A DNA stretch of 63,829 bases, counting the filler, from Globobulimina sp. (Eukaryota), in the NCBI GenBank assembly GCA_003354225.1. It is 18 parts of 18 records of this genome, joined end to end, with 100 filler letters (N's around TTAATTAATTAA, not from the genome) between each part and the next. Parts side by side here need not be neighbours in the genome. Positions count along the whole stretch, not along the records: positions 56,835 to 60,282 come from PIVH01002764.1; 17 more parts are not named here. One strand, written 5' to 3'. The translations under genes were made by a program, and so were the position numbers. The notes under the pieces are model-generated. The model was given only the letters and a program-made list of their open reading frames with translations, did not search any database and was not told where the DNA came from. Shown here piece by piece: positions 5,838 to 60,282 of this stretch (position 1 is its first letter; every line of letters starts with the position of its first letter).

Positions 5838-7003
5838 ATGGCAGAAATGTTATTCATATTCATTATTATTACGGTATCAAGCGTTCTGTCACAAAGCTTA
5901 AGTTAAATTATGTCTCTTCGCTATTTAACTCACACCAAATACCAAATTAAAATAAATAATAAATAGTTACGAGCATAAATAATAATCAATATTTTCAAAT
6001 AAGAAATAACCAGTCAACTGAACATAAAGGATGCATGTCTTGGGGCCCATACATGGGAAACAATGATTGGCCTTTCGTTGGTATTGGTCAATGTGGTTCT
6101 GCTCACAAAATGAATCTTTGGACTGCAATGAGATATGGCACAACTCAATTTAGGCTCAAAAACTTTAATGCCGGAAAATGTCTAACTTACCACACATCGA
6201 ACAATCCTACGTTATATCCTTGTGGTAGTCATGGAGATAAACAATTATTTTATATTTATAAGATTGACGGTGATACTGATGAATTTAGATTAAGAAATAA
6301 ATTTAAAGATACTTGTATTTATTATAAATTAAATAACCAAAATACATTTAGATTTAGTACAGGAAAATGTTCTGGATACAGCAAAACAGGACACACAGAT
6401 TTATATTGGAGATTTATACCGGAACCTGCGAGTTTTGTACAGGCTGATTTTTTGGTAGATACAGCAAGCGTAACACACATAAAGCCGTTAGCTTTAAATA
6501 ACGCTGTGTGTGATAATCGACATGGTGATGGCAAAAGTACGCAAGAATTAACGTTTACAGTGTCTCAAGAGATTGAGACGACAGCGGAGTGGATTCATAC
6601 CGGTGGAGTCGAAGTTAGTGTTGGGACCAAAATTAAGAGCGGTATTCCAGTTATTGCAGAAGGTTCAGTAGAAGTAGAAGTTACGGGATCTTATAGTCAT
6701 TCACTTGGCGAAGAAAAGGCAATAAAGAATGCGTTTGAGGCGTCGTTTGGATTAATATGGTTTGTCACATTATATATTATATTTAGTTGTTTATAATTAT
6801 ATATTTTAATATTTCATGTACACATTTTATACAGTGCACCAGGTGAAAGAGTACAAGGCAAAGCGTATATAAACAAGGGTGATTTGGCTGTTGGCTATGA
6901 GATTATTATGGAGGGGACAATTACCAGAAAGCAGTGTGTATCAAGAGGTACGTGGCGGGGCGTAGCAGCATCAAATTTAAACATTGAATATAAAAAATTG
7001 TGA
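5838..7003 (+). CDS. Secreted ricin-B-lectin-like + aerolysin/ETX-MTX2-type pore-forming protein (3 exons)
   Basis: Signal-peptide exon 5838-5901, intron 5902-5966, second intron about 6760-6833. QxF/W-type repeats (GKCLT, DKQLF, DLYW). S/T-rich beta-hairpin TTAEWIHTGGVEVSVGTKIKSGIPVIAEGSVEVEVTGSYSHS, then C-terminal APGERV...GTWRGV. Confidence 0.75.
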
Positions 7004-7111: not shown

Positions 7112-9670
7112 CTCTGCTGTTTGCATAAATAAATTAAGTTTTCCATATTCACCCAACAAATCATTATTTAATAACAATGTCAATGCCTTTGTGCTCAATG
7201 GATCTTTGCATTGACATATATGCATTGTGATGCTTTCTTTGTCGCTGCCAAATTGACACAAAAACGCTTTCCGCCACAAATGTCCATCATTTGAAACATA
7301 CTCTAAAACAGGTAACATATTTTGAGCACGCTTACTCACAAAGGCCAACGCGACGGAGCTGCTGCCAAACAATAACTGTCCTTTGATATTATCATTAATT
7401 TGATTTGTTTCTAATATGAATATTAATGCTGCACTCCACTCAAAATTATAACATATTGAATGTAAAAATGGCGCAATATAACAGCCGTCAGAACGGACAA
7501 ACAAAAATTTGCGTAATGCACTTATATTGTTAGCAAATAAACGTATTGCTTGTTTCAAAAAATTTGCTAACTGAACACCTGCATTTTGTCCTTGTTTCAT
7601 AGAGGAAATAGAGTTAAACAGGGAACCATAGCTATTGTTTACAACGTATTTACTAAAATAGCTTAATATCGCTCCACAAAAGCTCTTTCGGCATTGATTG
7701 GAGAAATATTTATTGATTTTGCCATTTTCATGTTTTATTATATGAAATAATGCGGCTTTATGGCAATTTTTATTCATTCCATCATCAATTAATGCATTGA
7801 TGTTTGAATTTGATGTTTTCCACAATATTTTAAACTGTTTCAGGTTGTCATTGCCAATCACATTAATAAATACATCATTTAAATTGCTCACATCTTTAAA
7901 TCGCGACATGTCGGCTGTCAATTGGCCAAAATTATAAATCAATTCGCTTTTTCGTTCCACCGAATATAACTTATGAGCTTTCTTCTTGTACGAATTCATC
8001 AAATCCAACAAAAATTGAATCTCAGCTATGATTTTTTGCTTTTTATTGGTCTGCGATTGGAGCAATACATTCAATTTTATGTCAGTGTATTGTGGGTACT
8101 CTGCGTTGTATGCACTCCAACCATTCTTACACCGAATAACCTCAACAATGCAATAGCTTTTTGCCTTAATTTGCAATACAAACATTTCAATAAATGTCAG
8201 CAAAGATTCGATCGTTTTAAAATGCAAAGCACATCGATTCATATCCAATATTTTGGCGCCAGTCGGATACTCCGCGGCAATGTAATCATTTTCCACTTTG
8301 GTTTGTGAGCGAGACAGTGTTTTGACCGGACCTGCAGTGAAATGCACGTTGTCTCCAGTTTGCAAATTAATTTCTTTGGTGATTTGCTTCATATCTCTCT
8401 GGAACATCGTATCCAAAATGTTTGCTCGAAACAGCAATTCGTCTGAATATAGATACAGTTATTTGTTTAATGTACATTGCATAGAAAATATACCTATATA
8501 CATACTCAAATATATATTTTTATCATAATGCTGTTTAGCGCTGAAATGTGTGCTCGGCGGATATATATCTTCTGATAATTCACTTTCTGTATATTTTGGG
8601 ACTAAACAGCCGCAATGATCTTGTCTAGCAATGTTTGAATATGGCGTAGAAACATTATATGTTTTCAATGCATTCCATTTGTCAGACTTACCGGCTTTTA
8701 TTGCCTCAATTTTTTCTTTCAGCAACAAATCACTTTGCTTCTGGCTTTCCGCTCGGACTCGAACCAATAATTCATAAAACAGTGTGTTTCTCAGTATCGT
8801 CTCCATACCGCTTTCATCTTCTTTTTGTTGCTGCGCATTTCCCGGATGTGGTAGGTACCAAATCAATGAGTTTATAAAATTCTCTTTTAGCCATTTCCAG
8901 CCTTTTTTATCTGACGTATCACTCAATATTTCTCCATATGTCTTCATCATTGTTTTCCATAATTTTGATTGTAACGGCTCAACTTTCTCGATATGATAGT
9001 AACGATTGAATGCATCCATTCTTTCTCCGTCGTCATTCAATACAGAATGCCAAGCATAAAATAGCATATCTTCACCGAATGGCGCTCTTTCTTCAATTGC
9101 TTTGCTCATAAAATCAGCCAATTTAAATTGCCTAAAATCAGCGGCAGGATTAAAATTGAAATTAATATTTGGATTATTATTGTTTGCTTTTTTCATGTTT
9201 TTCATATATTGATTCAAAAAAACTGCTTCTTTATTTTTCCTATGCAATGCCATGGCGATATCCTTCAAATCATTGCCAAGTTTGCCTGATAACTGTCTGT
9301 AATATAACAATTCTGTGATTTTATAACGGCCATATTTCATCGCATAAAGCAACGCATTCTCACCGTCATTGTCTTTGATGTGTACATCGCCGCCATAGTT
9401 GCAAATAAATGTTACTAAGTCGAGGTTTCCAGCGACCACCGCATACATCAACAATGTCATGCCACCATCAGAGTTTTGCGCATTTATTTCGATTTCATTC
9501 GAACTTATTAGGTTTTTGATGTACTGTAGGTTCCCACTGCTTAGTTTTTGTAATATTTCATTCCAATTTACATCATTTGATGCTAACATTTGTTTGGCCT
9601 CAAATTCGTCTTCATTTTGATGAATTTCATCTAATATAAAATCAATGTCTGTTGGAGTTATATCTTCCAT
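7112..9670 (-). CDS. Ankyrin-repeat + RelA/SpoT-synthetase-like nucleotidyltransferase protein, 3' partial
   Basis: Two ORFs join in frame across a GT-AG intron at 8443-8505. Ankyrin repeats GMTLLMYAV..GNLDLV and GENALLYAMKYG. NTase-like motifs GPVKTLSRSQTK, LDMNRC, KNG..YTDIKLN, EIQ and HKLY. Confidence 0.75.
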
Positions 9671-14219: not shown

Positions 14220-17200
14220 ATTGTTGTTTGATTGAGATCGATTTTTGTTTCGCATCTTGCAATGTATTGATCAATACTTTATTTTCTAAAATATTGCCAG
14301 TTGCTTCCGTCAATTCCTTTAATAATAAATTTTCTAAATCTGCCAATAAAATATTATTCGCACTCATTGTTTGTATCAACTCTTCTCTTTGTTTTTGCAA
14401 ATCAGGCCTTTCGTGACCAACCACAACATCTAACAATTGATCCTCTAATCCTTGCTGAGTCACACAAAAGTTAATAATCATTGTTTTGCCGGCAATCTCT
14501 GGCGAATAATTTGGCGATGATATTTTTGATACTAAATATAATCGAAAGTTGTCATCCCAATCTAATACATTATCACCTAATTTTATTTGCTTATTCTTAT
14601 TCTGATAAACAAATTCCTGCTCTAAGATACTGTCAATGATTGGATCAATTTCTTCATCCACACCTTCAAAAATGAATGGATTACCAAATTGGATGCTCAA
14701 TTCTAATATTTTCACGAAATCTGGATCTTGAAACGTTCGAATATTACACTTATTATTGGATTCTCGCGATTTTATCCAATTTATGGCCTGCATTTGCGGA
14801 TCAATGCACAATGGATATCTCGACGCGCGAGTGGTTAACATACCATTTTGTATCGATAACTCGTCAGCGGGCAAACCTTGTGATATCCACTCACTTCGCT
14901 CGACTTGCGTGATTAACAAATCTTCGACGCGGAAATTTGAGGTTATTGGGATTTTGCATACATTACAAATATCATTCATCCAATCTTCATAAATCATTTT
15001 CTGACGGTATTCAAATGAAAAAGCGCCGGTATATGATAAAAAGGATGAACATAATAAACAATCACCAACTAATAAATCAGATTTTATTGCTAGTTCTTGT
15101 TTATCTGCAGTCCAACGGACCCTTTCCGAGCCTAAACCAGAAATTAATTTTGCTGCGGAATCTAAATATACTCTCATTTGTTCTGCTTGTTTTGTTAAAT
15201 CCCTTAATTCCAAATCTTTGGCATTGAAATTAAACGACAATTCGCCAATTTGCGCTTCTAATTCGGCCAAGTCCTTTTCTGTACGCGCCAAATCTCTCTG
15301 TGCGGATAACATCTTCTTCTCCATTTCTTGCACTTTTTTCCTTCGCGGCGCAACCTCTTTGGCGACGTCATAATATCGCATCATTGCAATGACCCATTGT
15401 AATAAGCCCGCGCCCGCTTTGCTGACTCTATGCAAATTATCCATAGTTAACGTTTGCGTTTTGTCCTTGGGCCTGGATTTTAAGATTTTATTTACTTTTT
15501 TATACATTGTTTCGGTCATATTATCTCGTGGATAATTTTTCAATTTTTGTAAAAATGCAGCATCGCCCATCATGGCACGGGCTCCGGGCCAGCCATCATT
15601 GATATTTTCTGTACCTGACGGCCTCAAACCTAATACACATAAACATACATTTTTCACACAATCCTTGGGATTATTCAATACTTTAACTTCTGCGATATCC
15701 TCTTTTCTCAAATTCTTCAGTGCTTCGCGAGCTAATTCCAATGCAGGCAATGCTTCTTCCAAAGCTTGTTCAGCCAATTCCTTTTCTTTCGCAATCTCGA
15801 TGCCATCTATTTTCAATTGCTGCTTTTTCGAAGTTGCTGCTGCTTTCTTGTAGTTGGCATCTTTGGTCTTTTCTTGGATTATTTCGATCATTTTTGTACA
15901 TTCGATGGATTTCTCGTGCACCGTTTTATTTTGTTGGGTCAATTCTGTCCGCATTACATTTACATTATCGGAGGCTTTAATCAATTGATTCAAGCCACCT
16001 TCCAAGCGTTCAATACGTAAAGTATTGGCATCGCGAAATTTATTTAATTGCAATTTATAATTTAATAAGAAATCTAAATAATTCTTTGGTGTGATATGAT
16101 TTTTGCGTCTCATCTCTAACTCAAACTGCTGACTGTATTCATCCACACTCAGATGTACGCCGACAATGTGCTGAACAATGCTGTCTTTGTGTTGCGGCGG
16201 TATCTCGACATCAGTCAAGAAATACTTTGCAACGGCTAAGAGCGCATCTTTTGGCCATGGGAAAAACCAATCAATCACACAATTTGACACCATGCCGGGG
16301 AAATTTCTGCATCTGTTACGCAATGTGTCTCCAGCGGGCGACATTGCCAATACAACATGCAAATTATTTCGACATCGATTTATGAAATATTTCCAACAAT
16401 TTTCTTTGGATGGATTGATGCCCAAATTATCCACTTCGTCCCTTACACCATCAATCAATGGCAATTTGTCTTCTTCTGCAAATAATGCGGGGATCATACC
16501 AGATGTTAACATATTATTTATCAGTTCTAAAAATGACTCATCTTTAACATGTGCGTCGGTTAACAAAAATGTGCAGGATTTGCCTTTGCCGCCATTCTCT
16601 GTTCCTAATATTCCATATAATTTTTTCAAATCTTCACGAAATTCATTTTCACCATAATTACGAGACAATGAGATTTCAAATAAATGATAGCCGGCGGTAA
16701 AGGTTGCCAATTTGGTCAATGATTGCTTTCCTGAGCCACCCACACCGACTAACAACGCGTTTCCTCGCTTCATTTTTAAAATTCGATGAATTCGAGTTAA
16801 ATGTTCCAATGCATCTTCAAATAACACTAAATTCATTTGTTTTGATGGATGTTCTTCATTATATTTGGTCAATATTTCATCAAATATGTCTTTAATATTT
16901 GCATAATTGGTTAAATCTTGATACATTTCTAAATTCTCTTTGTTTTCACTGTTAACATCCAAATAATCTCCATATAATATAGGATCTGCACAAATCTTAT
17001 CTGTATCTGCTAAATCTCCATTAAAATTATCTATAATTAAGTTTTTTAATAATTTCTTATCAACAAATTCCTTGTCTTCTTCACATATCAATCGATCGTA
17101 AATCACTCTCAATGTTTCATTTCTAAATAAACGAACAAAGGCAGTGACATCATTGTATTTATCGGGTATTGATTGACATAAACCTTCATAGATTCGTGAT

Positions 17201-17673
17201 AAATCTCGCAAATTAAAAATATAATGAAATTTGCTTGGTGTTGCTGGTAATGCCGCAACTAATTCGTCATAAAATCTTAATGTAATATCTGTAATTTTAG
17301 ATGCTGCCATTTGGACGTCAGAGTGGAATAATTTCACATGTTCATTCAAAATGGATGCATATATCCTATGCAAGGATTGTTTTGATGGAAATACAACATT
17401 CAAAGTATTAAACAATGAAATAAATCGTGTATCCACATGATTTCTACCACCACCCGGCGGGGGCATGGCGCCGATCCAAAACAAATTCTTTGTGTTAATT
17501 TGTTCCAAATCTCCATCCCTTTCATACATTGTGCCTCTTTCAATTAAGAATTTTAACAAAGCAATTGGTTGCTGAGTGCCATAAGTATCAACATTTGGCA
17601 TATTTGAATCATCGACAAATACTAACAGTCGTTTACCGCCTGGAGGCAACCAAACTGGTCCTCTTTTTTCTAT
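14220..17673 (-). CDS. DNAH10: Axonemal dynein heavy chain (I1/f alpha, DNAH10-like), internal fragment AAA3-AAA4-stalk-AAA5
   Basis: KRLLVFVDDSNMPNVDTYGTQQPIALLK, KFHYIFNLRDLSR, Walker A GVGGSGKQS, stalk coiled coil, PLCIDPQ and GLEDQLL. Confidence 0.9.
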
Positions 17674-42638: not shown

Positions 42639-44608
42639 TATTTTGGTGTGGATACATATGGGAATGTCGCCAGGATGATCGTTATGGAAGTCTGGGAAGT
42701 GATGATGCAGACACTTGCTCTATTACTGTACAACGGATTTAATGTCTGGGACGCAGATGGCGTGTATTTAGCGTACAAACCGACATTCATTTATTTATTT
42801 GTCAGTATGTTATCATTTAACTGCATAGTTGTCGGTATATTATGGTTACTGTATGTATTTCAACAGCATAAATGCAATGGTTTACTATTCAAATTATGTG
42901 CATTTTGTATTGACCAATTTTGCGATTTATTTTACGTGATATATCCTTTTATAGTGGTCTTCCAAGATGGTTATAACGAGCTGTATAAAGATGGCCAAAC
43001 TGATGCTATTTGGGTTGGATTTGGCTTATTAAATCAAGACACTTTTTCAGCTTTTTTATATTCTGCTTTTCCAATGACATTATTAATTACAAAATGTCTG
43101 CTAACCACACGATCAGCAACGCGAGAGATGCGAAATAAATCGTATTATATCTGGTTATCTGTCACAAAAACAATGGTTGCTTCGCATTGCATTGAAGATA
43201 CAAATAATTTCGAGGCAGTTGATACTGAACTTTATGATGAAAAAGGTAATCTGAAAAAAAATATATTGGCAGCCACTACGAAACCAAGCTCCATCCCCAA
43301 AAACACCGCATGCCGCATTTCAATTGTAATTGTCGGCGTATTCTTTATCGTGTATTCCATTGTATTGTTAAGGTTTGTTATGTAATACAAATATAATTAA
43401 TATATGTACACCGTATATGTAGTCTGGTGATAAATCATCTGCAGTCATCTCGTCATTATTGCAACACCGCAGCCACCAAAGTGGAGATAATGCAGCAACA
43501 TCCGGAGTTGTCTGTGTTTAATGCATTTTGTAACTATAAAGTGTATCCATTTTCATTTAGCACAGACATGGCTTCCAACTGTGAATGTCGAGTGCTTCAA
43601 TTGGACTGGAAAAATATGGACAAATTCGATGTCAATGTCAGTCAAATTGCAGTGGTTGATGGCATATTACGCGAATGGAGCATGTTGGAGAAGTTTCAGA
43701 CCAGAAACACATTGCATTGGCAATCTCCGCCCGCTTTAGAACTCTCTGCGTTGCATTTCAGAGCCACAGAAATGAAATTATTCAGTTGGTTGGATATCGG
43801 TATAATGAAAATTGACGATGCAATCTCAAATTGGGGCAAATTGGAATTTTTTGAACTTCAACGAGTGGATAATTTGACCGCATTCCCTTCATCATTTTCA
43901 AAATTAACAAACTTAAAAGCGTTTCTGCTCGCAAACGTTAACAATTTATCTAATTTTACACAATATTTATGTGCAATGACAGAATTACTCATTGTTCAAC
44001 TACGCGGTACAAATGATGCAGTGATACCGCATTGTTTTGGAGACTTAATCAATTTGCAAAGGCTGGGTATTCAGGCGAATCATGTCAGGGCATTTCCGTT
44101 GGGAATATTGAATCTGACAAAGTTAGAATCCTTGGATTTGTGGAACAATCTGATTACTTATGATCAGATTTTGGAATACAATAATTTTAGTAATGACAGT
44201 GATCCATTTAAATATTATATAAATTCCCCGACTGAGACTGATGTTTTTTTATCTGGGAAGATTTGCGCAACACATTATTTGCAAGCATTACCAAAATCGT
44301 TTCAAATATGGACAAACAAACGAGGGGCCTGCGGGAGTGGGCAATGTGCGCAAGATGGTGAATGCGCTGCTTATGGCTTAGGAAATGGTATTTGCATCGA
44401 TATCTGTAATATTGCAGAATGTGATTATGATAAAGGGGATTGTTATCAGTTTTGTTTTACAAAAACACAGTGTTCAATTGATAGCTATTTGAATGACATT
44501 TGTGATGAGGAGTGTAATAATGAGGAGTGTGCGTGGGATAATGGAAGGTGTAAGAATGCGACTGTTGTTCCAACAAAAAGACCAGCTGGCATTGGTAGTG
44601 TGAAGTGA
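42639..44608 (+). CDS. Multi-pass membrane protein with C-terminal leucine-rich repeats and two LNR (Lin12/Notch) repeats
   Basis: About five TM helices, intron 43373-43422, LxxLxLxxN repeats (LTKLESLDLWNNLI). LNR motifs GNGICIDICNIAECDYDKGDC and NDICDEECNNEECAWDNGRC. Confidence 0.75.
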
Positions 44609-53286: not shown

Positions 53287-56200
53287 GATGACAAACATTA
53301 TACTGTGATCGCGAAACAACATCTTTTCTTCCAGCAATTTACATGTCCATTCTGCCAGAACTTCTATCGCAGCAGAGACTCTCTGAACCATCATTTGAGC
53401 AGAAAGAAATGCGTCGCACAGGCCATACTGGAGAAAAACCCTGACGCGGACTTACGAGATTTTTGGGGATCCGATGACATATTTTCTGCTAAAATAAAGA
53501 ATCATTTTAAAGGTGGAAAAAATCAGCGTAAATTGACCATAGCCGAACGGTTGGAGAATATCGGAATCGATGTCGGCGACGATTTCGATCTTAATCCTTA
53601 TTTTGCCATCGCCGATATTGAAACGTTGCTGGGAGAAAAATTTTATGAAGACGAACAGACCACCGGCGAGGCTGCGCTCGGACCCAAATCTTTGCTATTG
53701 ACCGATCAGCACACACCTATCGCCATTTCCATTGTTTCCAATGTACCTGTAGAACCCTTCTCAACTAGCCGTTGCTTTATCGGTCTGGATGGTGGGTCGA
53801 CATTCATTCAGAATTTTCTAGGATACACCTTAAGAATGTCTGAAGAAGCGGCAATCGAAACTGTGCAAATGGATGCCATACAAGAAGTGTTTACAGAATT
53901 GAATGGAGCGATTAAAAAACTGGTAGAGAGTGACACAAAACCTGCATTGGTCGCGATGATGAAAAAACTGAGAAAAGATATTGGCAATCAAATTGATCAA
54001 CTACCGGTGTTATTTTATAATTCGTCTTTTGATCTCACATGTCTTTGTTCTTACGGTCTGGCTCATTATATGACAGAAATGGAAGGAAGTCCACCGAAAG
54101 CATTGAAGAAACGAAATCAGTGGATTTTTTTGGCCTCTCAACATATACGATTTTTGGATGTAATCAAATACTTAAATGGTAGAGTATCATTGACAGATTT
54201 CTTGTACGCCTACGGTGTGGAGGATCGATATTCAAAATTGGGGTTTCCATATCAAATATTGAGAACGGCAGACGATTTGGAAAAAGAATTACCATTACCA
54301 TACGAAAGCTTTTGGTCGGATTTGAAACAAACAAACACACTGAATACAGCTTACGAGCGATATCAGGATTTGTTGGAGAGAGGTGTGGAGAAGGATAAGG
54401 CTTTGAAAATGCTGAAAAGAACGGAAGAACCCGAGAAAGGAGAGGTGGTACATGAAAAACTTATGCAATTTGTGAAAGAGAAAAATATGACCAAGTTATG
54501 GCATTATTTAGCCTTGTACTGCTCCGTCGATTGTTTGGGTGTACACGTGGGTTTGGAACGAATGAAAAGATCGATCAAGAAATTAGCCGACATTGATATG
54601 TTCGAATTTAACACCCTACCCAGTCTCAGTTATGCTTGGGCGTTAAAACACTTGGCCGACTACCCTGACGAAACTTTCAATTACGTTGTAAGATTGGGTA
54701 AGGAAGCATTTAATATGATCAATTCTAATATACGCGGTGGTGCTTCTACAATTTTGAAACGATTATCAGCCGTCGGTTACACCAAAATACAAGCTCACGC
54801 ATACAGTGTACCAGAAATTGTTAAGAATATAATGGTTTTGGATTTCAACACACTTTATGGCAGCACGAGTATGTTTGAATGCCCAGTGCTCGGACCGTAC
54901 TCTATCAGAAGAAAGGAAAATAATTTCCTGATGGATAAAGTTCAAGAAAGAGGGTTGCTCGCCCTGTGTTGGCTGGAATATGAAGCACGGTGCAACCACA
55001 AAAAACAGATTCAAACTATTCTGGGTGCAAAATCGGAGAAAACTCTGCTGTTGGAACCCGGGGTACGTGCACGGTTGGATGGATGGATCACGCTGGGTAA
55101 AGACAAGAAAGGAAAGCTTTATGGATTATCCTTCGAATTTCATGGATCGGTGGTACATTCACACCCTAGTGCGATGACGAAGGATCAGTTTGAAAATGGA
55201 GTCAACCCTTTCAATAAACGTCCAAACAAAGAAGTGTATGAAGAGACGCTGGCTCGAGATGAATTGATCAAAAAACATCCACAAGTTGCAGAACATCATG
55301 TGATGTGGTCACACGATTGGGAGAAAATGATTAAGACAAAACCGTTTGTAAAGTGTTTTGTGGAGTCTATAATAAACAAATTCAGTCCAAAGGAAGTCGA
55401 AAAAAGTTTTTCGTGGCAAAGATGTTTAGAGTTGATTTTGGAGAAGAAAATTCACGGATGTGTGCAGTGTTCCCTGAAAACACCGGACTCAAAGATCGGT
55501 GAGATGGCTCTCTACCCTCCATTTTGGTTACATCGAAATTTGAAAAGAGATGATCTCTGTCAGACCGAGAAAGATTACGCTGTAAAGTATGAGAAAATGA
55601 AGGGGGAAAATGGGGAAAGGATGTTGTGCAATGAGTTGATGGTCGAAGACACCGTGATTACCACCGATCTGCTCTGTTTCTATATCGAAGATTTGGGTTT
55701 GGAATGCACAAATATAGAGAAAGTTATACAATTCAAAGGTCGTGGCAAACCGTGGCTACCGTTTCTGGAGAAGTGCATAAAATTCAGAGAAGATGGAAAG
55801 GACACCGGTGTTCAGGTTCAAGTTATGGTCGCCAAAGCTATTTTAAATACTTTCTTTGGCTCATCCATTATGAAATTGGAAGGTCGCAGACAAACCTCGT
55901 TTGTGCCGGAGGAAAAGATTTTGATGACTGTAGACAAAGATAATTTTTTCTCCAGTGTTCAATCTGGCCCAAGCTGTAATCCAAACGCTATTTTCGAAAC
56001 CCAATTGACAAAACTAGATGTCCATCAAAACAGCTCCAAACAAATTGGTTTCTGGATTTTGAATTGCAGTAAAATGATTTTATTGCGATTCATCCACCTT
56101 CAACTGCAATATTATCTCAGACCTGGAACATTCGAAATTTATGCTACAGACACGGATTCTTGTATTCTTGGAATCGCCACAGAAGGCAGCGATTTACGAC

Positions 56201-56734
56201 CGCTGTGTAAACCGGAAATGATGGTCGAATTTGAAGAGCAATATGACAAAATTTTTGTCACCAAAGACGAAGACAGTCTTAAACCTTTGTTGTTGAAAAT
56301 CGAGAAAGAAGGAGACATTTTTGTTGGTTTATCGGCGAAAATGTATGAAATTGTATCAAACAGAGATCGATTGCCAAAAATCGCCTGCAAAGGTATCCCT
56401 CAGACCATAGAAAACGAGATGGTTCTAAGTTTGAGCAATTATATTGCCACTGTTTTCGATATCGATGAAGAGCGCTATAAAGCCACCGTTCGTGGTATGC
56501 GGGTGGATTCCGATAAATTAATGCGGACATATGTGCAAGAAAAAAGTGGATTACGTCGGTTTTGCCCCAAGGTTGGATATTTCCCTTGCGCAATTTGTAA
56601 TTTCCCACGTGATCTGAAAGATGATTCAGATACTTTGACACAATTGTTTCCATATCACGATCGTCACTGTGATGCCAGTTATGATTCACTCGTACAACAT
56701 ATCGAGGAAAATTTTCCCAATTTAGTTATTAAGG
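53287..56734 (+). mobile_element. polB: Protein-primed family B DNA polymerase of a Polinton/Maverick or Polinton-like virus (partial at both ends)
   Basis: Intronless frame of over 1140 codons, less AT-rich than host contigs. C2H2 finger, ExoI ADIET, ExoII YNSSFD, ExoIII YCSVD, IRGG, motif A DFNTLYG, inserted LDGW..FEFHGSVVHSH nuclease-like domain, motif B KAILNTFFG, motif C TDTDS, KMY and KGI. Confidence 0.88.
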
Positions 56735-56834: not shown

Positions 56835-58836
56835 TGAGGAGGAAGATGATGAGTACCACCAACAGAATGGGAAGCGATTCAAACGTCAGAAAAATGCCAG
56901 GAAAGAGAAACGGACACTCATTGAATCAGACCTAATGGACGAATATGACTCCGTTAGTTATGCCACGGTGAGCAGTGACAGCGACATTGATTATTTATCC
57001 GTTGATTCGGAGCACGCGCTTCAAGACAGTAAAAAGGTAAAACATAGCCACTGTGAGAAGAAAATGGAAGAGAAACTCGGTGCGCGTGGTATTGGCATGG
57101 ATGTGGAAATTGGACATGGAGCCACTACTATGTACGATTTGGAAGCCAGTGAGTTTGATAATATTCACCATTCGCCCGACGCGTCCATACTCGTCGCCAA
57201 TCCGATGATATCTTCCTATATTGCGGCGCAAGTGGAGCAGAAATGGAGTGAGGAGCAGAGAGAGCGAGACCTGATGGAGGAGGAAAGAGTAAAATATGAG
57301 CAAATGCTCGAAGGGAGCAATACAGATTTAGATGAGGAGCGAAGTGGAGATACTGGCACTGACACTGACAGTGACTCTGATGACTGCAATGTGCGACGTT
57401 TGAATGACGACGAGGATGAGACCGAGGATGGCGAAGATGAGTATATTTTGGAGAAATTGAGAGAGATTCTTGGCAGTCATCAGTTTTTAGAGCAAGATGG
57501 TGATGGCTCGGAAGATAGTACGAATGACGTGGATGGCGTATTGGATCAGGTCGAAAATCTGTGTCGCGACGTGGATGAGTACAGTAATAAATATTTTAGC
57601 ACCTCGCAGAGGAATAAGAAACTGAAAAATGAGGTGGAGCGAATGGAGAATGAGCTGGAAGATATAGAAAGTCAGCATGACTTATTGAAGCAGGAATATA
57701 TGAAATTGCGCCAACAAAACGAGAGCTTAGCCTCCAAAGTGAGGAAGTATGAGCGGTATAACACGTACAATAAACCGACACCGAATGGTCATACCACAGC
57801 CGGCGGCTATGACTCTGACGACGAGTTTGAAGAGAAAGATATTTTAAATCAGTTACAAGACGATTTGTTACAGCTGAGACAGGACATAAAAGAGAGTCAA
57901 AAGTCCGCCAAATCAGAGTACAAAGATTGCAAATTGCGATTGGAATCTATGTGTGAACCGTTAGGGGACTTAGCCAATGATTTTAAGTCTGATGTATTGA
58001 AAGAAGCGCTGGGCAAATTAGAGAAATCATGCAATGATATCTCCAACTTACAGAAACAGCGGTTGTTTCAACATGGTCCCTTGGCGAATATTGTCGAGAG
58101 TAATATTGATGATATTGATGATTTATTGCATGAAATCGAGAAAATGAAAGCGAAAAAAGTAGCCAATCAAAATGCAGTTAATACCAATGGTGGTGTGTCT
58201 GATATGGATAAATACAAATATCCGGAATTAATCTATGATGGCGATGACGGCAAAAATAATATAAAGGAACATGAGCCGGGCAGTAATTTGGAGCGATATA
58301 AATTCGGCGATGACGAGAAGGATAAATGGAAGGATACACCTGGGCAAAATATAGAGTTTGACGCCAATTTTCCGCGTGTTCGCAAAATTGAGATTGATGG
58401 CAATTGGTTTAATAAGAAACCGCGAGCAGTGATTGAATGGAACGGGAACGAGTTTAAACGGAAGATGGCCGATTTCAAGTGGTTGTGGAGAATGTTAATG
58501 TTGAACTCGACGATTGATCGCATTCCGCCGGATTATCCGTCGGACATTCCGGAGAGTCTGTGGCCGGAAGGATATCTAAGACGGCGGAAGAGAGAGTTGA
58601 ACCTATTTTTAATGCAATGCCACTCGTTGCCGTGGATTAAAAAGTATAAGGTGTATAATGATATATTTCTTGAGGTGGATAAGAAAGAATGGAAAAGGAA
58701 AAGAAATGAACAGGATGAAGATATTATTGATAGAATTAAACATAAACAATCTACGTATGATAAAACGATTGATGTAATTGATAACAATAACGATAATTAT
58801 CAGATACACACAAATGATAACGATCCTAATTATTAA
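56835..58836 (+). CDS. Acidic coiled-coil protein with C-terminal PX-like domain, 5' partial
   Basis: KRKMADFKWL..IPPDYP..YLRRRKRELNLFL follows the PX pattern. The frame is open from the contig edge. Confidence 0.65.
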
Positions 58837-59152
58837 TTTTACGTTTTTTGTTTGAATGACGAACATATATTTTTATTTGTTTGCTTAAATGTTGATTAAA
58901 TGTTGATTATTTTTATTTTTTCCTTTTTTTTTTGATTGTACTTTTATTATTGCCATTTAACAAATCAACTGATTTTTATTGCCAATAAAAAGTACAATCC
59001 AAAAGGGTTTGTTATTTTTATCTAGCGCTTAGATTAAAAAAGGTTTTCTGGTTACTAGTTTTTTTCCTAATCATCCTTCCCAAGTTAAAAACAAATATTG
59101 TGTTGTTCTGTACATATATATTGGACCATTATATATATATACAGCTTAAAAA

Positions 59153-60282
59153 ATGGGTAATACAGATTCGACGCACAAATTGGGAGAGAGAGTGCTTGCT
59201 GGTCAGAGAAAGTTGAATCAAGACAAAGAAATCCAATCTGAACGATATGAATATTTCGCATTAAACAATCCAGAGATGTTAGATGTTATGATGAAAAGTG
59301 TTGAAATGTCTTTTAAGTGTTGCTCACCATTTTTAGAACCGATATTATTGATAGCATTCAAACACAATCCGGAAACCTGCAAAAAAATCGTATTAAATTC
59401 GTGTAGAAAAGTTCTCAGTGCGCCAATCGAGAAAAAACAACATCAATGGTTTAGAGAATATGTATTCCCATCTTCTTTATGGATGTTCAAGACCAAAGAA
59501 AATAGGTTTATGTATAAAGAATTATTGAGTATCGCCAAAAATATGTCCGCAGATATCATAGATAGTATGGACTCCATTTATAGCCATTTAGAAGTACATT
59601 CCAAATGGACACAGATTTTAGATATTAAGCATCAACAATCCGTATTAAGGCAAGACCATCAAACCGTGGGTCTATTGCGAGAAAAAGCACTCTATGAAAT
59701 ATTTGAGGGTAAAACTATGGATGCTGATGAAAAAAATAACGATACTGGCAATAAATCAGAAGATATGAAAAGTTTCATTGATTCCAATTTGGCCATAAAT
59801 ATTTTGATGAGTGCTGCTGCAAACATTAACAACGAATTTCAAAATCATGTCAGAGCATTAATGAGTCGCTATGGAGATTTTCAACCCGGTCCAATAAAGA
59901 AAGTGGAGCGTTGCGTGAGTAAATTAGAAAATGATTACCAGGACGCCAAATATCCGAAATGTGGCAAATTATTAGATTTGATTCGTTGTTCAGTGACGTT
60001 TAACACTTTGGATCAATTAATTGTTGGCTATAACGGTTTAATGAGGCATCTCGCGCAAAATAAGAGTATTATCGAGTTAGGGAGAGTTAAAAATGGCTTT
60101 TTAGAGAAAGGTGCCGGAGGATATAGAGACGTTAAAGTGAATGTGGTGTATAAATCGCAGATTAATCCCGGCCTAAATATGATTTGCGAGATCCAGCTAA
60201 TGCTTATCAACTATTTACAGGAAAAGAAACGAATCCATAAATTGTACAGTATTTTGCGGGAAGAATTATATTTTCAAATGGT
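59153..60282 (+). CDS. RelA/SpoT-synthetase-like nucleotidyltransferase protein with N-myristoylation motif, 3' partial
   Basis: MGNTDS, then GPIKKVERCVSK, LDLIRC, KNGF..GYRDVKVN, EIQ and HKLY. Clear paralog of 7112-9670. Confidence 0.75.

Follow-up and report, generated by a model that had tools for sequence, protein, structure and literature searches.

Whether eukaryotes synthesize (p)ppGpp-type nucleotides outside plastids is an open question, and it is raised anew by a gene of the foraminifer Globobulimina sp. (GenBank assembly GCA_003354225.1). The stretch of DNA analysed here, referred to as the window, is 63,829 nucleotides long and is composed of 18 contigs of 3447-3456 bases each with spacers of N between them; the gene is located on the contig at positions 56835-60282 (PIVH01002764.1). 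A first reading of the window, made from the sequence alone (the sequence-only reading), had taken the gene for the second of two RelA/SpoT-like paralogs. What does it encode, does the product carry the residues that a RelA/SpoT homologue (RSH) uses for alarmone synthesis, and to what kind of family does it belong? We consider it likely that the product is an N-myristoylated, catalytically complete RSH synthetase of about 710 residues, in which a helical domain with an Arg-Gln-Asp (RQD) triad and a WD40 propeller are coupled to an enzyme making (p)ppGpp and/or (p)ppApp.

The coding sequence (59153..60282, + strand) is complete at its 5' end and truncated at its 3' end. The open frame begins with the ATG at 59153 and continues for 376 codons (59153-60280), followed by two bases, until the contig ends, the C-terminus being located beyond it. 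The start given by the sequence-only reading is therefore retained, while its end point, 60282, is the end of the contig and not that of the gene. All the motifs quoted in that reading are present in the protein and in the stated order, both the catalytic and the accessory ones. The accessory part comprises MGNTDS (residues 1-6), W99...S107..W110, E123-L-L, R166-Q-D-H169 and D210...F229-Q230. It is followed by the first half of the catalytic motifs, G246-P-I-K249...R253...K257.E-N-D-Y262...Y267-P268...K272.L-D275..R278-C279, and by the second half, K313-N-G315, Y324-R-D-V-K-V-N330, E346-I-Q348 and H362-K-L-Y-S366. The protein is collinear with residues 1-368 of a 707-residue relative from Bolivina argentea (P0049), with 57% identity.

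At the level of sequence family models, the protein is not recognized as an RSH synthetase, and its predicted fold is the first line of evidence that it belongs there. An AlphaFold2 model of the window protein, based on a 51-sequence alignment, has a mean predicted local distance difference test score (pLDDT) of 93.9 and a predicted template modelling score of 0.88. Searching the PDB with this model by Foldseek gave 43 matches at E <= 1e-3, and among the matches listed all are RSH synthetases, namely SAS1 (E 8.4e-6), RelP, RelSeq, CapRel, SaEAS, Tas1 and FaRel2. When structures were compared by VIA, the first 13 rows were RSH chains, with Z 11.7-9.6 over 146-168 residues and 13-22% identity. 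The best of these is SAS1 (5ded_H; Z 11.7, root-mean-square deviation 3.5, 156 residues, model residues 212-375), and the others include CapRel (Z 11.4, 168 residues), the exported synthetase SaEAS (8vx3; Z 10.5-10.9) and Tas1 (Z 10.0, 148 residues, 22% identity). A VIA scan of 48,161 representative chains, which was independent of Foldseek, placed RSH chains as the top 6 and as 8 of the top 10. In the viral library BFVD the best match is 'RelA/SpoT [uncultured Caudovirales phage]' (E 5.8e-7, 26% identity over 165 columns), and phage models named 'Tas1' are also found there. The RSH synthetase-fold domain predicted from VIA, Foldseek and hhalign covers approximately residues 204-376 (59762..60280, +).

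The single-domain bacterial synthetases SAS1/RelQ and SAS2/RelP are the best structural matches, being aligned over nearly the whole SAS chain (Z 11.7-11.2, root-mean-square deviation 2.9-3.5, 150-160 residues). Identity to them is, however, 13-19%, and they match the Pfam family RelA_SpoT, whereas the window family does not. The bacterial Tas1/Apk1 and the phage Apk2-type toxins, which make (p)ppApp (PMC10083569), resemble the window protein in a different respect, as Tas1 has the highest structure-based identity to it and phage 'RelA/SpoT' and 'Tas1' models head the viral-library matches. Unlike these toxins, the window protein comes without a PAAR or MuF domain for delivery and without an immunity gene, and the profile E-values for Tas1 are not significant.

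The second line of evidence is a bridge in sequence space. When the profile of the eukaryotic family was searched against 401 Pseudomonadota genomes, open reading frames (ORFs) of 257-268 residues were found in 9 of the 401 (E 8e-12 to 1.6e-7). All eight that were fetched (L083-L090) resemble a signal peptide in their first residues. Their motifs are K..R..K, D-L-A-R, K-N-R-F, G-Y-R-D, E-V-Q and H..Y-E, and Pfam RelA_SpoT recognizes two of the ORFs, with 28.3 bits (cut-off 27) and 25.2 bits. Aligned by hhalign, the eukaryotic family and the bacterial set match with a probability of 97.7% (E 1.4e-12) over 142 columns with 28% identity, corresponding to residues 215-374 of the window protein. 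Homology to RSH synthetases is thereby reached transitively, via the bacterial ORFs. The same bacterial set aligned with RelA fragments gives E 0.0058 and a probability of 6%, yet in the expected register. One of the ORFs (L083) has on one side a gene resembling M13-type peptidases and on the other small ORFs of unknown kind.

Judged by their length, signal peptide and Pfam match, not by their names, the bacterial ORFs are probably RelV orthologues. RelV of Vibrio cholerae and VpEAS were shown in 2025 to be Sec-exported (p)ppGpp synthetases that are toxic in the cytoplasm (available part of PMC12691689). RelV/VpEAS-like proteins are the sole relatives of the window protein reached by sequence methods, and K..R..K, D-x-x-R, KN.F, GYRD, E.Q and H..Y are common to both, together with the RSH fold. 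The differences are also considerable. The bacterial proteins have about 260 residues, a Sec-type signal peptide and no other domain, whereas the window protein is eukaryotic, with introns in its gene. It begins with a myristoylation signal where they have the signal peptide, is longer at the N-terminus by about 200 residues, among them the RQD triad, and carries Lys328 in place of Asn; a WD40 propeller is added in its relatives.

The third line of evidence comes from the individual residues, whose conservation was counted over 109-172 family sequences, depending on the position. The basic motif K249...R253...K257 (59897..59923, +) takes the place of the RSH 'K...S...K' ATP-phosphate motif according to conservation and profile alignments; it is aligned to Tas1 residues 273-299 in two profile searches and to the bacterial K..R..K, and its residues are conserved in 161/164, 157/160 and 156/158 sequences, respectively. 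Its role in binding the ATP phosphates is proposed by analogy. D275-L-I-R278 (59975..59986, +) comprises the predicted Mg-binding Asp and an Arg at +3, both present in 140 of 140 sequences and aligned to the bacterial 'TDLAR'. The same D-x-x-R spacing is found in SaEAS, as D121/R124, the active-site residues of which are given as D121, R124, K154, N169, E182 and Q184 (in the part of PMC12691689 available).

The predicted acceptor-site and ATP-site strands follow, R311.K313-N314-G315 and Y324.D326.K328.N330 (60083..60142, +), and are aligned by hhalign to the bacterial KNRF...GYRDLN. Here N314 is invariant (129/129), and K313 (127/130), D326 (124/127), K328 (125/127) and Y324 (116/127, with Phe in a further 7) are nearly so. 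The GYRD around Y324 is aligned to the bacterial GYRD and to GYQS of RelA; its equivalence to the acceptor-stacking Tyr is a matter of alignment, not of superposed coordinates. In FaRel2 this Tyr is Y128, which Y324 matches by motif, and the Mg-binding Asp is D90 (10.1101/2021.04.30.441581, available part). The last segment, E346.Q348 and H362..Y365 (60188..60250, +), is predicted to be the catalytic Glu/Gln strand and the helix after it, and is aligned to the bacterial EVQLHL and H..YE. E346 and Q348 match E182 and Q184 of SaEAS by motif, and the residues of this segment are also conserved (E346 120/121, Q348 112/120, H362 106/111, Y365 107/109). The Mg-binding Asp, the Glu-x-Gln and the stacking Tyr of RSH synthetases thus have predicted counterparts in D275, E346/Q348 and Y324. 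Taken together, the fold, the transitive sequence homology and the conserved catalytic residues bear out the RelA/SpoT-like domain of the sequence-only reading, with no direct Pfam match.

Several observations weigh against the reading of the window protein as a myristoylated, WD40-coupled RSH synthetase. Pfam RelA_SpoT (PF04607, cut-off 27 bits) gives no match for either of the two window copies at E <= 1, nor for any of 30 aligned members even at E <= 10, and none of 10 members matches NCBIfam. The family profile aligned by hhalign with Escherichia coli RelA and with 18 RelA fragments yields probabilities of 0.3% and 0.04%, and HMMER comparisons in both directions with 121 RelA-type sequences give about 0-8 bits, which is not meaningful. 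The spacing D-x-x-R, as in SaEAS and Apk1, stands in place of the classical D-x-x-G-x-R of RelA, and K328 is found where RelA has His and the bacterial relatives carry Asn. As coordinates were not superposed, the residue equivalences rest on sequence and profile alignments. The bacterial search was a sample of one phylum, the variant counts given below are based on 40 of 62 differences, and the WD40 part and the stop codon of the window copy lie outside the window. Finally, nucleotidyltransferases of the Pol X type are only about 2 Z units below the best RSH chains (Z 9.0-9.6), for which reason the fold alone cannot separate RSH from the wider pol-beta superfamily. Other library searches were likewise empty as regards RSH: PHROGs and PADLOC gave nothing meaningful on the core module, 50,697 phage records searched by tblastn with the catalytic part yielded two rows at chance level, and PDB sequence searches with the window protein and three profiles gave nothing significant on the RSH side, Tas1 (6ox6) alone being touched (E 1.1-1.7). 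The first of the PDB profile searches was swamped by WD40; the C-terminal part of the profile matched WD40 structures at E 3.6e-20.

Given the Pol X values, it has to be asked whether the protein could be a generic pol-beta-type nucleotidyltransferase, similar to TENT or TdT, which adds nucleotides and is not a pyrophosphokinase. Indeed, TdT, Pol mu, Pol lambda and GLD-2 are all found at Z 8.4-9.6, and two members of the family have weak Pfam matches to Mab-21 (E 0.024). These structural alignments, however, extend over 105-130 residues with 5-9% identity, compared with 146-168 residues and 13-22% for RSH chains, and the profile link leads to RelA_SpoT proteins. Classical nucleotidyltransferases have a G[GS]...D-x-D triad, unlike the single Asp and Glu-x-Gln that make up the family pattern. 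We judge a nucleotidyltransferase of this type to be very improbable. An equally small chance is given to a catalytically dead scaffold, a pseudoenzyme that has kept only the fold. Such a protein would explain why no family model matches and why the motifs depart from those of classical RSH (D-x-x-R; Lys for His), but the counterparts of the Mg-binding Asp, of the Arg, of Glu-x-Gln and of the stacking Tyr are kept in 91-100% of the sequences and are common to the active bacterial relatives.

Because the full set of ATP/Mg and acceptor-site residues is present, the window protein is probably a pyrophosphate-transferring enzyme that uses ATP as donor and the 3'-OH of GTP/GDP or ATP/ADP as acceptor. 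In such a reaction ATP-Mg would be bound by K249/R253/K257, D275/R278 and E346/Q348, and Y324 would stack a purine nucleotide whose 3'-OH receives the beta-gamma pyrophosphate, giving (p)ppGpp and/or (p)ppApp. The hints on the acceptor point to both products, as the relatives reachable by sequence make (p)ppGpp and structure-based identity is highest to (p)ppApp synthetases.

An acceptor other than a free nucleotide has also been considered, the protein then being an RSH-fold pyrophosphokinase that modifies tRNA like CapRel and FaRel2. CapRel is among the best structural matches and has the longest alignment of all (Z 11.4/11.3, 168 residues, model residues 173/175-374), toxSAS proteins of the CapRel/FaRel2 type as a whole being found at Z 11.0-11.4. 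CapRel likewise combines a synthetase with a regulatory or sensor domain in a single chain, and the tRNA-modifying toxSAS keep the same Asp and Tyr (according to the available part of 10.1101/2021.04.30.441581). CapRel and FaRel2 are, in contrast, bacterial or prophage-encoded, use a tRNA acceptor and have no ankyrin repeats, WD40 or lipid anchor. Moreover, the Z values of SAS1, RelP, CapRel and Tas1 lie no more than about 1.5 units apart and do not discriminate between acceptors, and the sole relatives detectable by sequence, those similar to RelV and VpEAS, are reported to make (p)ppGpp only (PMC12691689, in the part available). A tRNA acceptor is thus unlikely in our estimation, and the synthesis of purine alarmones is the reading retained here.

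The part of the protein in front of the synthetase domain begins with the hexapeptide MGNTDS (59153..59170, +). N-myristoyltransferase recognizes a Met-Gly start followed by a small uncharged residue at position 3 and Ser or Thr at position 6, and MGNTDS, with Gly2 and Ser6, fits this consensus. The sequence-only reading had proposed the signal from the window copy, and it proves to be real and conserved. Among the N-complete members of the subfamily, defined as those in which the profile match starts at residue 1-3, 53 of 54 begin with MG and fit the pattern G-{EDRKHPFYW}-x(2)-[STAGCN]-{P}, with Ser or Thr at position 6 in all 53 listed. The predicted lipid-anchor signal is a conserved trait of the subfamily and not a chance hexapeptide, and the window protein itself is presumably N-myristoylated, in which case the anchor would keep the enzyme at a membrane. 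The hexapeptide leads into a polar helix, and a hydrophobic export signal such as exported RSH enzymes have is absent.

Residues 4-156 form a helical N-terminal domain (59162..59620, +) as predicted by AlphaFold2 and by conservation; the helices, starting at residue 4 or 7 and ending at 156, have pLDDT 84-98 both in the full model and when the N-terminus is modelled alone. The RQD triad, R166-Q167-D168-H169 (59648..59659, +), is located in the loop between the helical and the synthetase domains. Its conservation, 170/172 for R166, 170/172 for Q167 and 169/172 for D168, is on a par with that of the catalytic residues, and L65, W99, S107, W110, W152, G173, L218, A222, F229 and Q230 are also conserved before residue 230. 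After the triad, a variable acidic linker of about residues 186-198 (59708..59746, +) has pLDDT 66-72 and length-variable alignment columns.

The RQD loop (residues 160-177) has pLDDT 95-98 in the full model. In a model of the first 209 residues alone (pLDDT 82.7), helices 4-156 are confident, and residues 160-209 have about 50-56, with R166-H169 at about 54-56. This difference suggests that the RQD segment needs the synthetase domain to become ordered and is part of the interface between the two; the structural alignment with CapRel begins already at model residue 173-175. The helical/RQD domain may, then, pack on the catalytic domain and either gate it or complete the acceptor site. Searched alone, the N-terminal domain is left unmatched by Foldseek at E <= 0.001, the best E being 1.1. 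VIA aligns it at most at Z 6.6, with assorted helical repeats, and no Pfam family is found on it. It is an unnamed, family-specific domain without a recognizable fold relative, in agreement with the earlier suggestion of an unnamed domain around RQDH; a regulatory role, also suggested there, is a hypothesis.

In long RSH proteins (Rel/RelA/SpoT) an HD hydrolase or pseudo-hydrolase precedes the synthetase and TGS and ACT-type domains follow it, and a degenerate HD hydrolase was looked for in the N-terminal domain. No RSH hydrolase or Mesh1 was found among the best 50 VIA rows for the N-terminal domain or the best 50 for the whole model, which does not by itself exclude that family. Pfam gives no match to HD_4, TGS or ACT, and no conserved His/Asp pair is present in residues 1-200. 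The bacterial enzymes of the RelV/VpEAS clade work very fast and kill when they stay in the cytoplasm (available part of PMC12691689), so that a cytosolic eukaryotic version should, by analogy, be restrained. For such control and coupling, the RQD domain and the WD40 propeller would be the obvious candidates, with the propeller connecting the enzyme to a protein partner. Neither a cognate antitoxin or immunity gene nor a delivery domain of the PAAR, MuF or LXG type is found at the locus, where the gene is flanked by the gene for a PX-like protein and by the contig end.

How large and how variable is the family to which the gene belongs? A word-indexed search returned 45 relatives. An exhaustive profile search of 1.84 billion cluster representatives (50% identity) gave 1,725 at E <= 1e-3, among them 629 at <= 1e-10 and 122 at <= 1e-30. 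Pfam domains were assigned to 45 long representatives. Ankyrin repeats are found in 36, of which two also have RCC1, one RING and one a coronin-type WD40; of the remainder, three have a WD40-type propeller only and six lack any Pfam match. No Pfam family is found on the core module. N-termini of the SPRY and CCDC53-like types occur in the family as well. A large modular family, as suggested from only two copies, is thus supported, with 1,725 cluster representatives and ankyrin, WD40, RCC1, RING and SPRY fusions. Named members come from the foraminifera Elphidium margaritaceum, Nonionella stella and Bolivina argentea, and a divergent stand-alone group includes the cryptophyte Hemiselmis.

A FastTree phylogeny, rooted at midpoint, was calculated for the 114 of 193 family sequences that covered at least 80% of 255 columns. 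The ankyrin-type sequences form a clade of 70 tips (support 0.948) with long branches, total length 47.4. The window gene belongs to a clade of 37 tips with a total branch length of 12.1, and the 38-tip node that also includes P0066 has a support of 0.977. Full-length members of the latter clade (P0049, P0050 and P0052) have 707-746 residues, an MG start and a C-terminal WD40 propeller. A propeller of this kind is expected in the window copy past the contig end, as it is seen in the relatives. Because the MG/WD40 and the ankyrin types are two deep clades (support 0.98 and 0.95), each with a stable architecture, the two copies in the window are to be regarded as members of two old subfamilies, separated by an ancient split. 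The swapped N-terminus by which they had been related to each other is not supported.

The first copy, of the ankyrin type, is encoded on the complementary strand (7112..9670, -) by an exon at 9670-8506, followed by a 63-base GT..AG intron at 8505-8443 and by an exon at 8442-7112 that runs off the contig. Its ankyrin exon matches Pfam Ank_2 (E 2.6e-12) and the catalytic motifs are in the second exon; the spliced reading agrees with an uninterrupted relative (P0181). A tblastn search of the window protein against the window revealed one other significant locus, 8341-7946 (-), with 37.9% identity over 132 residues (E 1.6e-21), and by BLASTP the catalytic parts of the two copies are 38% identical over 132 residues (E 9e-24). 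The accessory region said to be common to both copies is weak in pairwise comparison (E 0.018) and clear by profile: a family hidden Markov model (HMM) built from 51 members without that exon matches first-copy residues 202-417 to profile positions 38-213 (E 1.1e-39). Applied to the 1028 six-frame fragments of the window, the family HMM matches at these two loci only. The part of the second exon at 7112-7930 (-), residues about 170-442, extends for about 270 residues beyond the synthetase domain; this tail lacks a Pfam match, does not resemble the WD40 end of the second subfamily, and looks like another unnamed module.

Contigs of two sequencing runs (X6 and X8, with two different organism codes) are approximately 95% identical to the window gene and represent a close orthologue, an allele or a recent paralogue. 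The 40 listed of the 62 differences to them comprise 31 synonymous and 9 non-synonymous ones; 27 are at third codon positions. Because of this ratio, and because none of the 9 falls within residues 238-376, the frame of the window gene is under purifying selection.

These data bear on the proposal of the sequence-only reading that the family resembles lineage-expanded immune receptors, i.e., that it is an arms-race sensor family in which variable modules are swapped onto a toxic RSH effector. In favour of it are the very large size of the family and its sensor-type repeats, with ankyrin in 36 of 45 long representatives and WD40, RCC1 and RING in others, and the long branches of the ankyrin clade (47.4 for 70 tips). 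The bacterial relatives are toxic in the cytoplasm (PMC12691689, available part), and fungal NLRs with RelA_SpoT at their N-terminus have been reported (available part of 10.1101/2022.03.16.484565). The window copy, however, belongs to a conserved MG/WD40 clade (12.1 for 37 tips) with one fixed architecture, and its change is mostly synonymous, purifying rather than diversifying (31:9). The central NACHT or NB-ARC domain of NLR/STAND proteins is absent from the 45 long members and from both window copies, and no other STAND NTPase is found in the long members either. The immune-receptor analogy is accordingly not supported for the window copy, and its membership of such an arms-race family is in our view quite improbable, more so than a tRNA acceptor.

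Among known eukaryotic RSH proteins, a superfamily survey of 2011 listed plant RSH1-4, Mesh1 and sporadic 'divRel' synthetases of fungi, Dictyostelium and diatoms (PMC3153485, in the part available). Like these, the window protein has an RSH domain, and the synthetase or hydrolase domain of the known proteins was probably acquired from bacteria. In contrast to it, they are found by RSH and Pfam models, and in the available parts of the two sources none is from foraminifera or cryptophytes and none has the RQD, myristoyl-WD40 or ankyrin architecture (PMC3153485; 10.1101/2022.03.16.484565). No foraminiferal or cryptophyte RSH family and no such architecture was found in the literature covered, most subscription journals and supplements being outside this coverage. 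The family of at least 1,725 clusters has near-invariant catalytic residues and eukaryote-type fusions and escapes standard family models, and its helical domain, marked by a near-invariant Arg-Gln-Asp triad, is new as well. Annotators could recognize the family with the HMM and the structural model obtained here. Should the enzymes prove active, the cytosol of two protist lineages would be a site of alarmone-like nucleotide synthesis. More speculatively, foraminifera and cryptophytes may possess a cytosolic alarmone system of their own, in which a captured ancestor of the RelV-like exported synthetases acquired the RQD domain and split into a conserved, anchored WD40 line, to which the window gene would belong, and a hugely expanded ankyrin line of sensor-effectors. 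The latter would make (p)ppGpp/(p)ppApp or block tRNA on a trigger, as a eukaryotic counterpart of CapRel-type abortive defence. We put this forward tentatively, and think it rather less probable than its opposite.

Some features of the locus and of the other contigs remain to be described. No ATG is present in the visible 5' region upstream of the MGNTDS start (58936-59083 plus 59145-59152). A contig of run X1 (1301 bases) covers 59145-60282 and extends about 155 bases past the end of the window contig; its 8 extra leading letters equal window 59076-59083. These are located directly before a GT, and the 61 bases that are skipped end with AG at 59144, which by alignment of the X1 contig makes 59084..59144 (+) a putative GT..AG intron in the 5' untranslated region. 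That the X1 contig is a spliced transcript is a hint, not proof, as the type of the run is unrecorded. Positions 59088-59134 are uncovered by all four sequencing runs compared; no joint is listed there and the gap was not used as evidence. Upstream on the same strand, an ORF at 56935-58836 (+) encodes an acidic, coiled-coil-rich protein of 633 residues with a weak C-terminal PX match (20.5 bits, cut-off 21.6).

The possibility that the gene is contaminating bacterial DNA was rejected because of the introns in both copies, the eukaryotic fusion domains and the presence of dynein, G-alpha and RasGEF on other contigs of the window. Ordinary eukaryotic proteins are in fact encoded on these contigs, including dynein heavy chain, G-alpha, RasGEF, a protein kinase and PPR repeats. 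Among 27 other large ORFs of the window, Pfam detects no HD_4 and no RelA_SpoT domain, intron-containing genes being ones that could be missed. The dynein heavy chain fragment at 14221-17673 (-), with AAA_7, AAA_8, stalk and AAA_9, has an uninterrupted frame over the full contig, with no intron. At 53287-56733 (+), one open frame of 1149 residues runs across a 3.45-kb contig and matches DNA_pol_B_2 (E 5.7e-13), a type B polymerase of the organellar or viral protein-primed kind. The frame may belong to a Maverick/Polinton-like element or to a linear plasmid. At 5963-6793 (+), a 277-residue ORF matches CDtoxinA (E 6.3e-9) and ricin-B lectin, and in its second half the aerolysin-type pore-forming toxin ETX/MTX2 (E 3.9e-4); it has the look of a protist protein that combines a lectin with a pore-former. 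Finally, the ORF at 43397-44605 (+) combines leucine-rich repeats with Notch-type LNR domains (E 6.7e-11), a pairing that is unusual outside animals.

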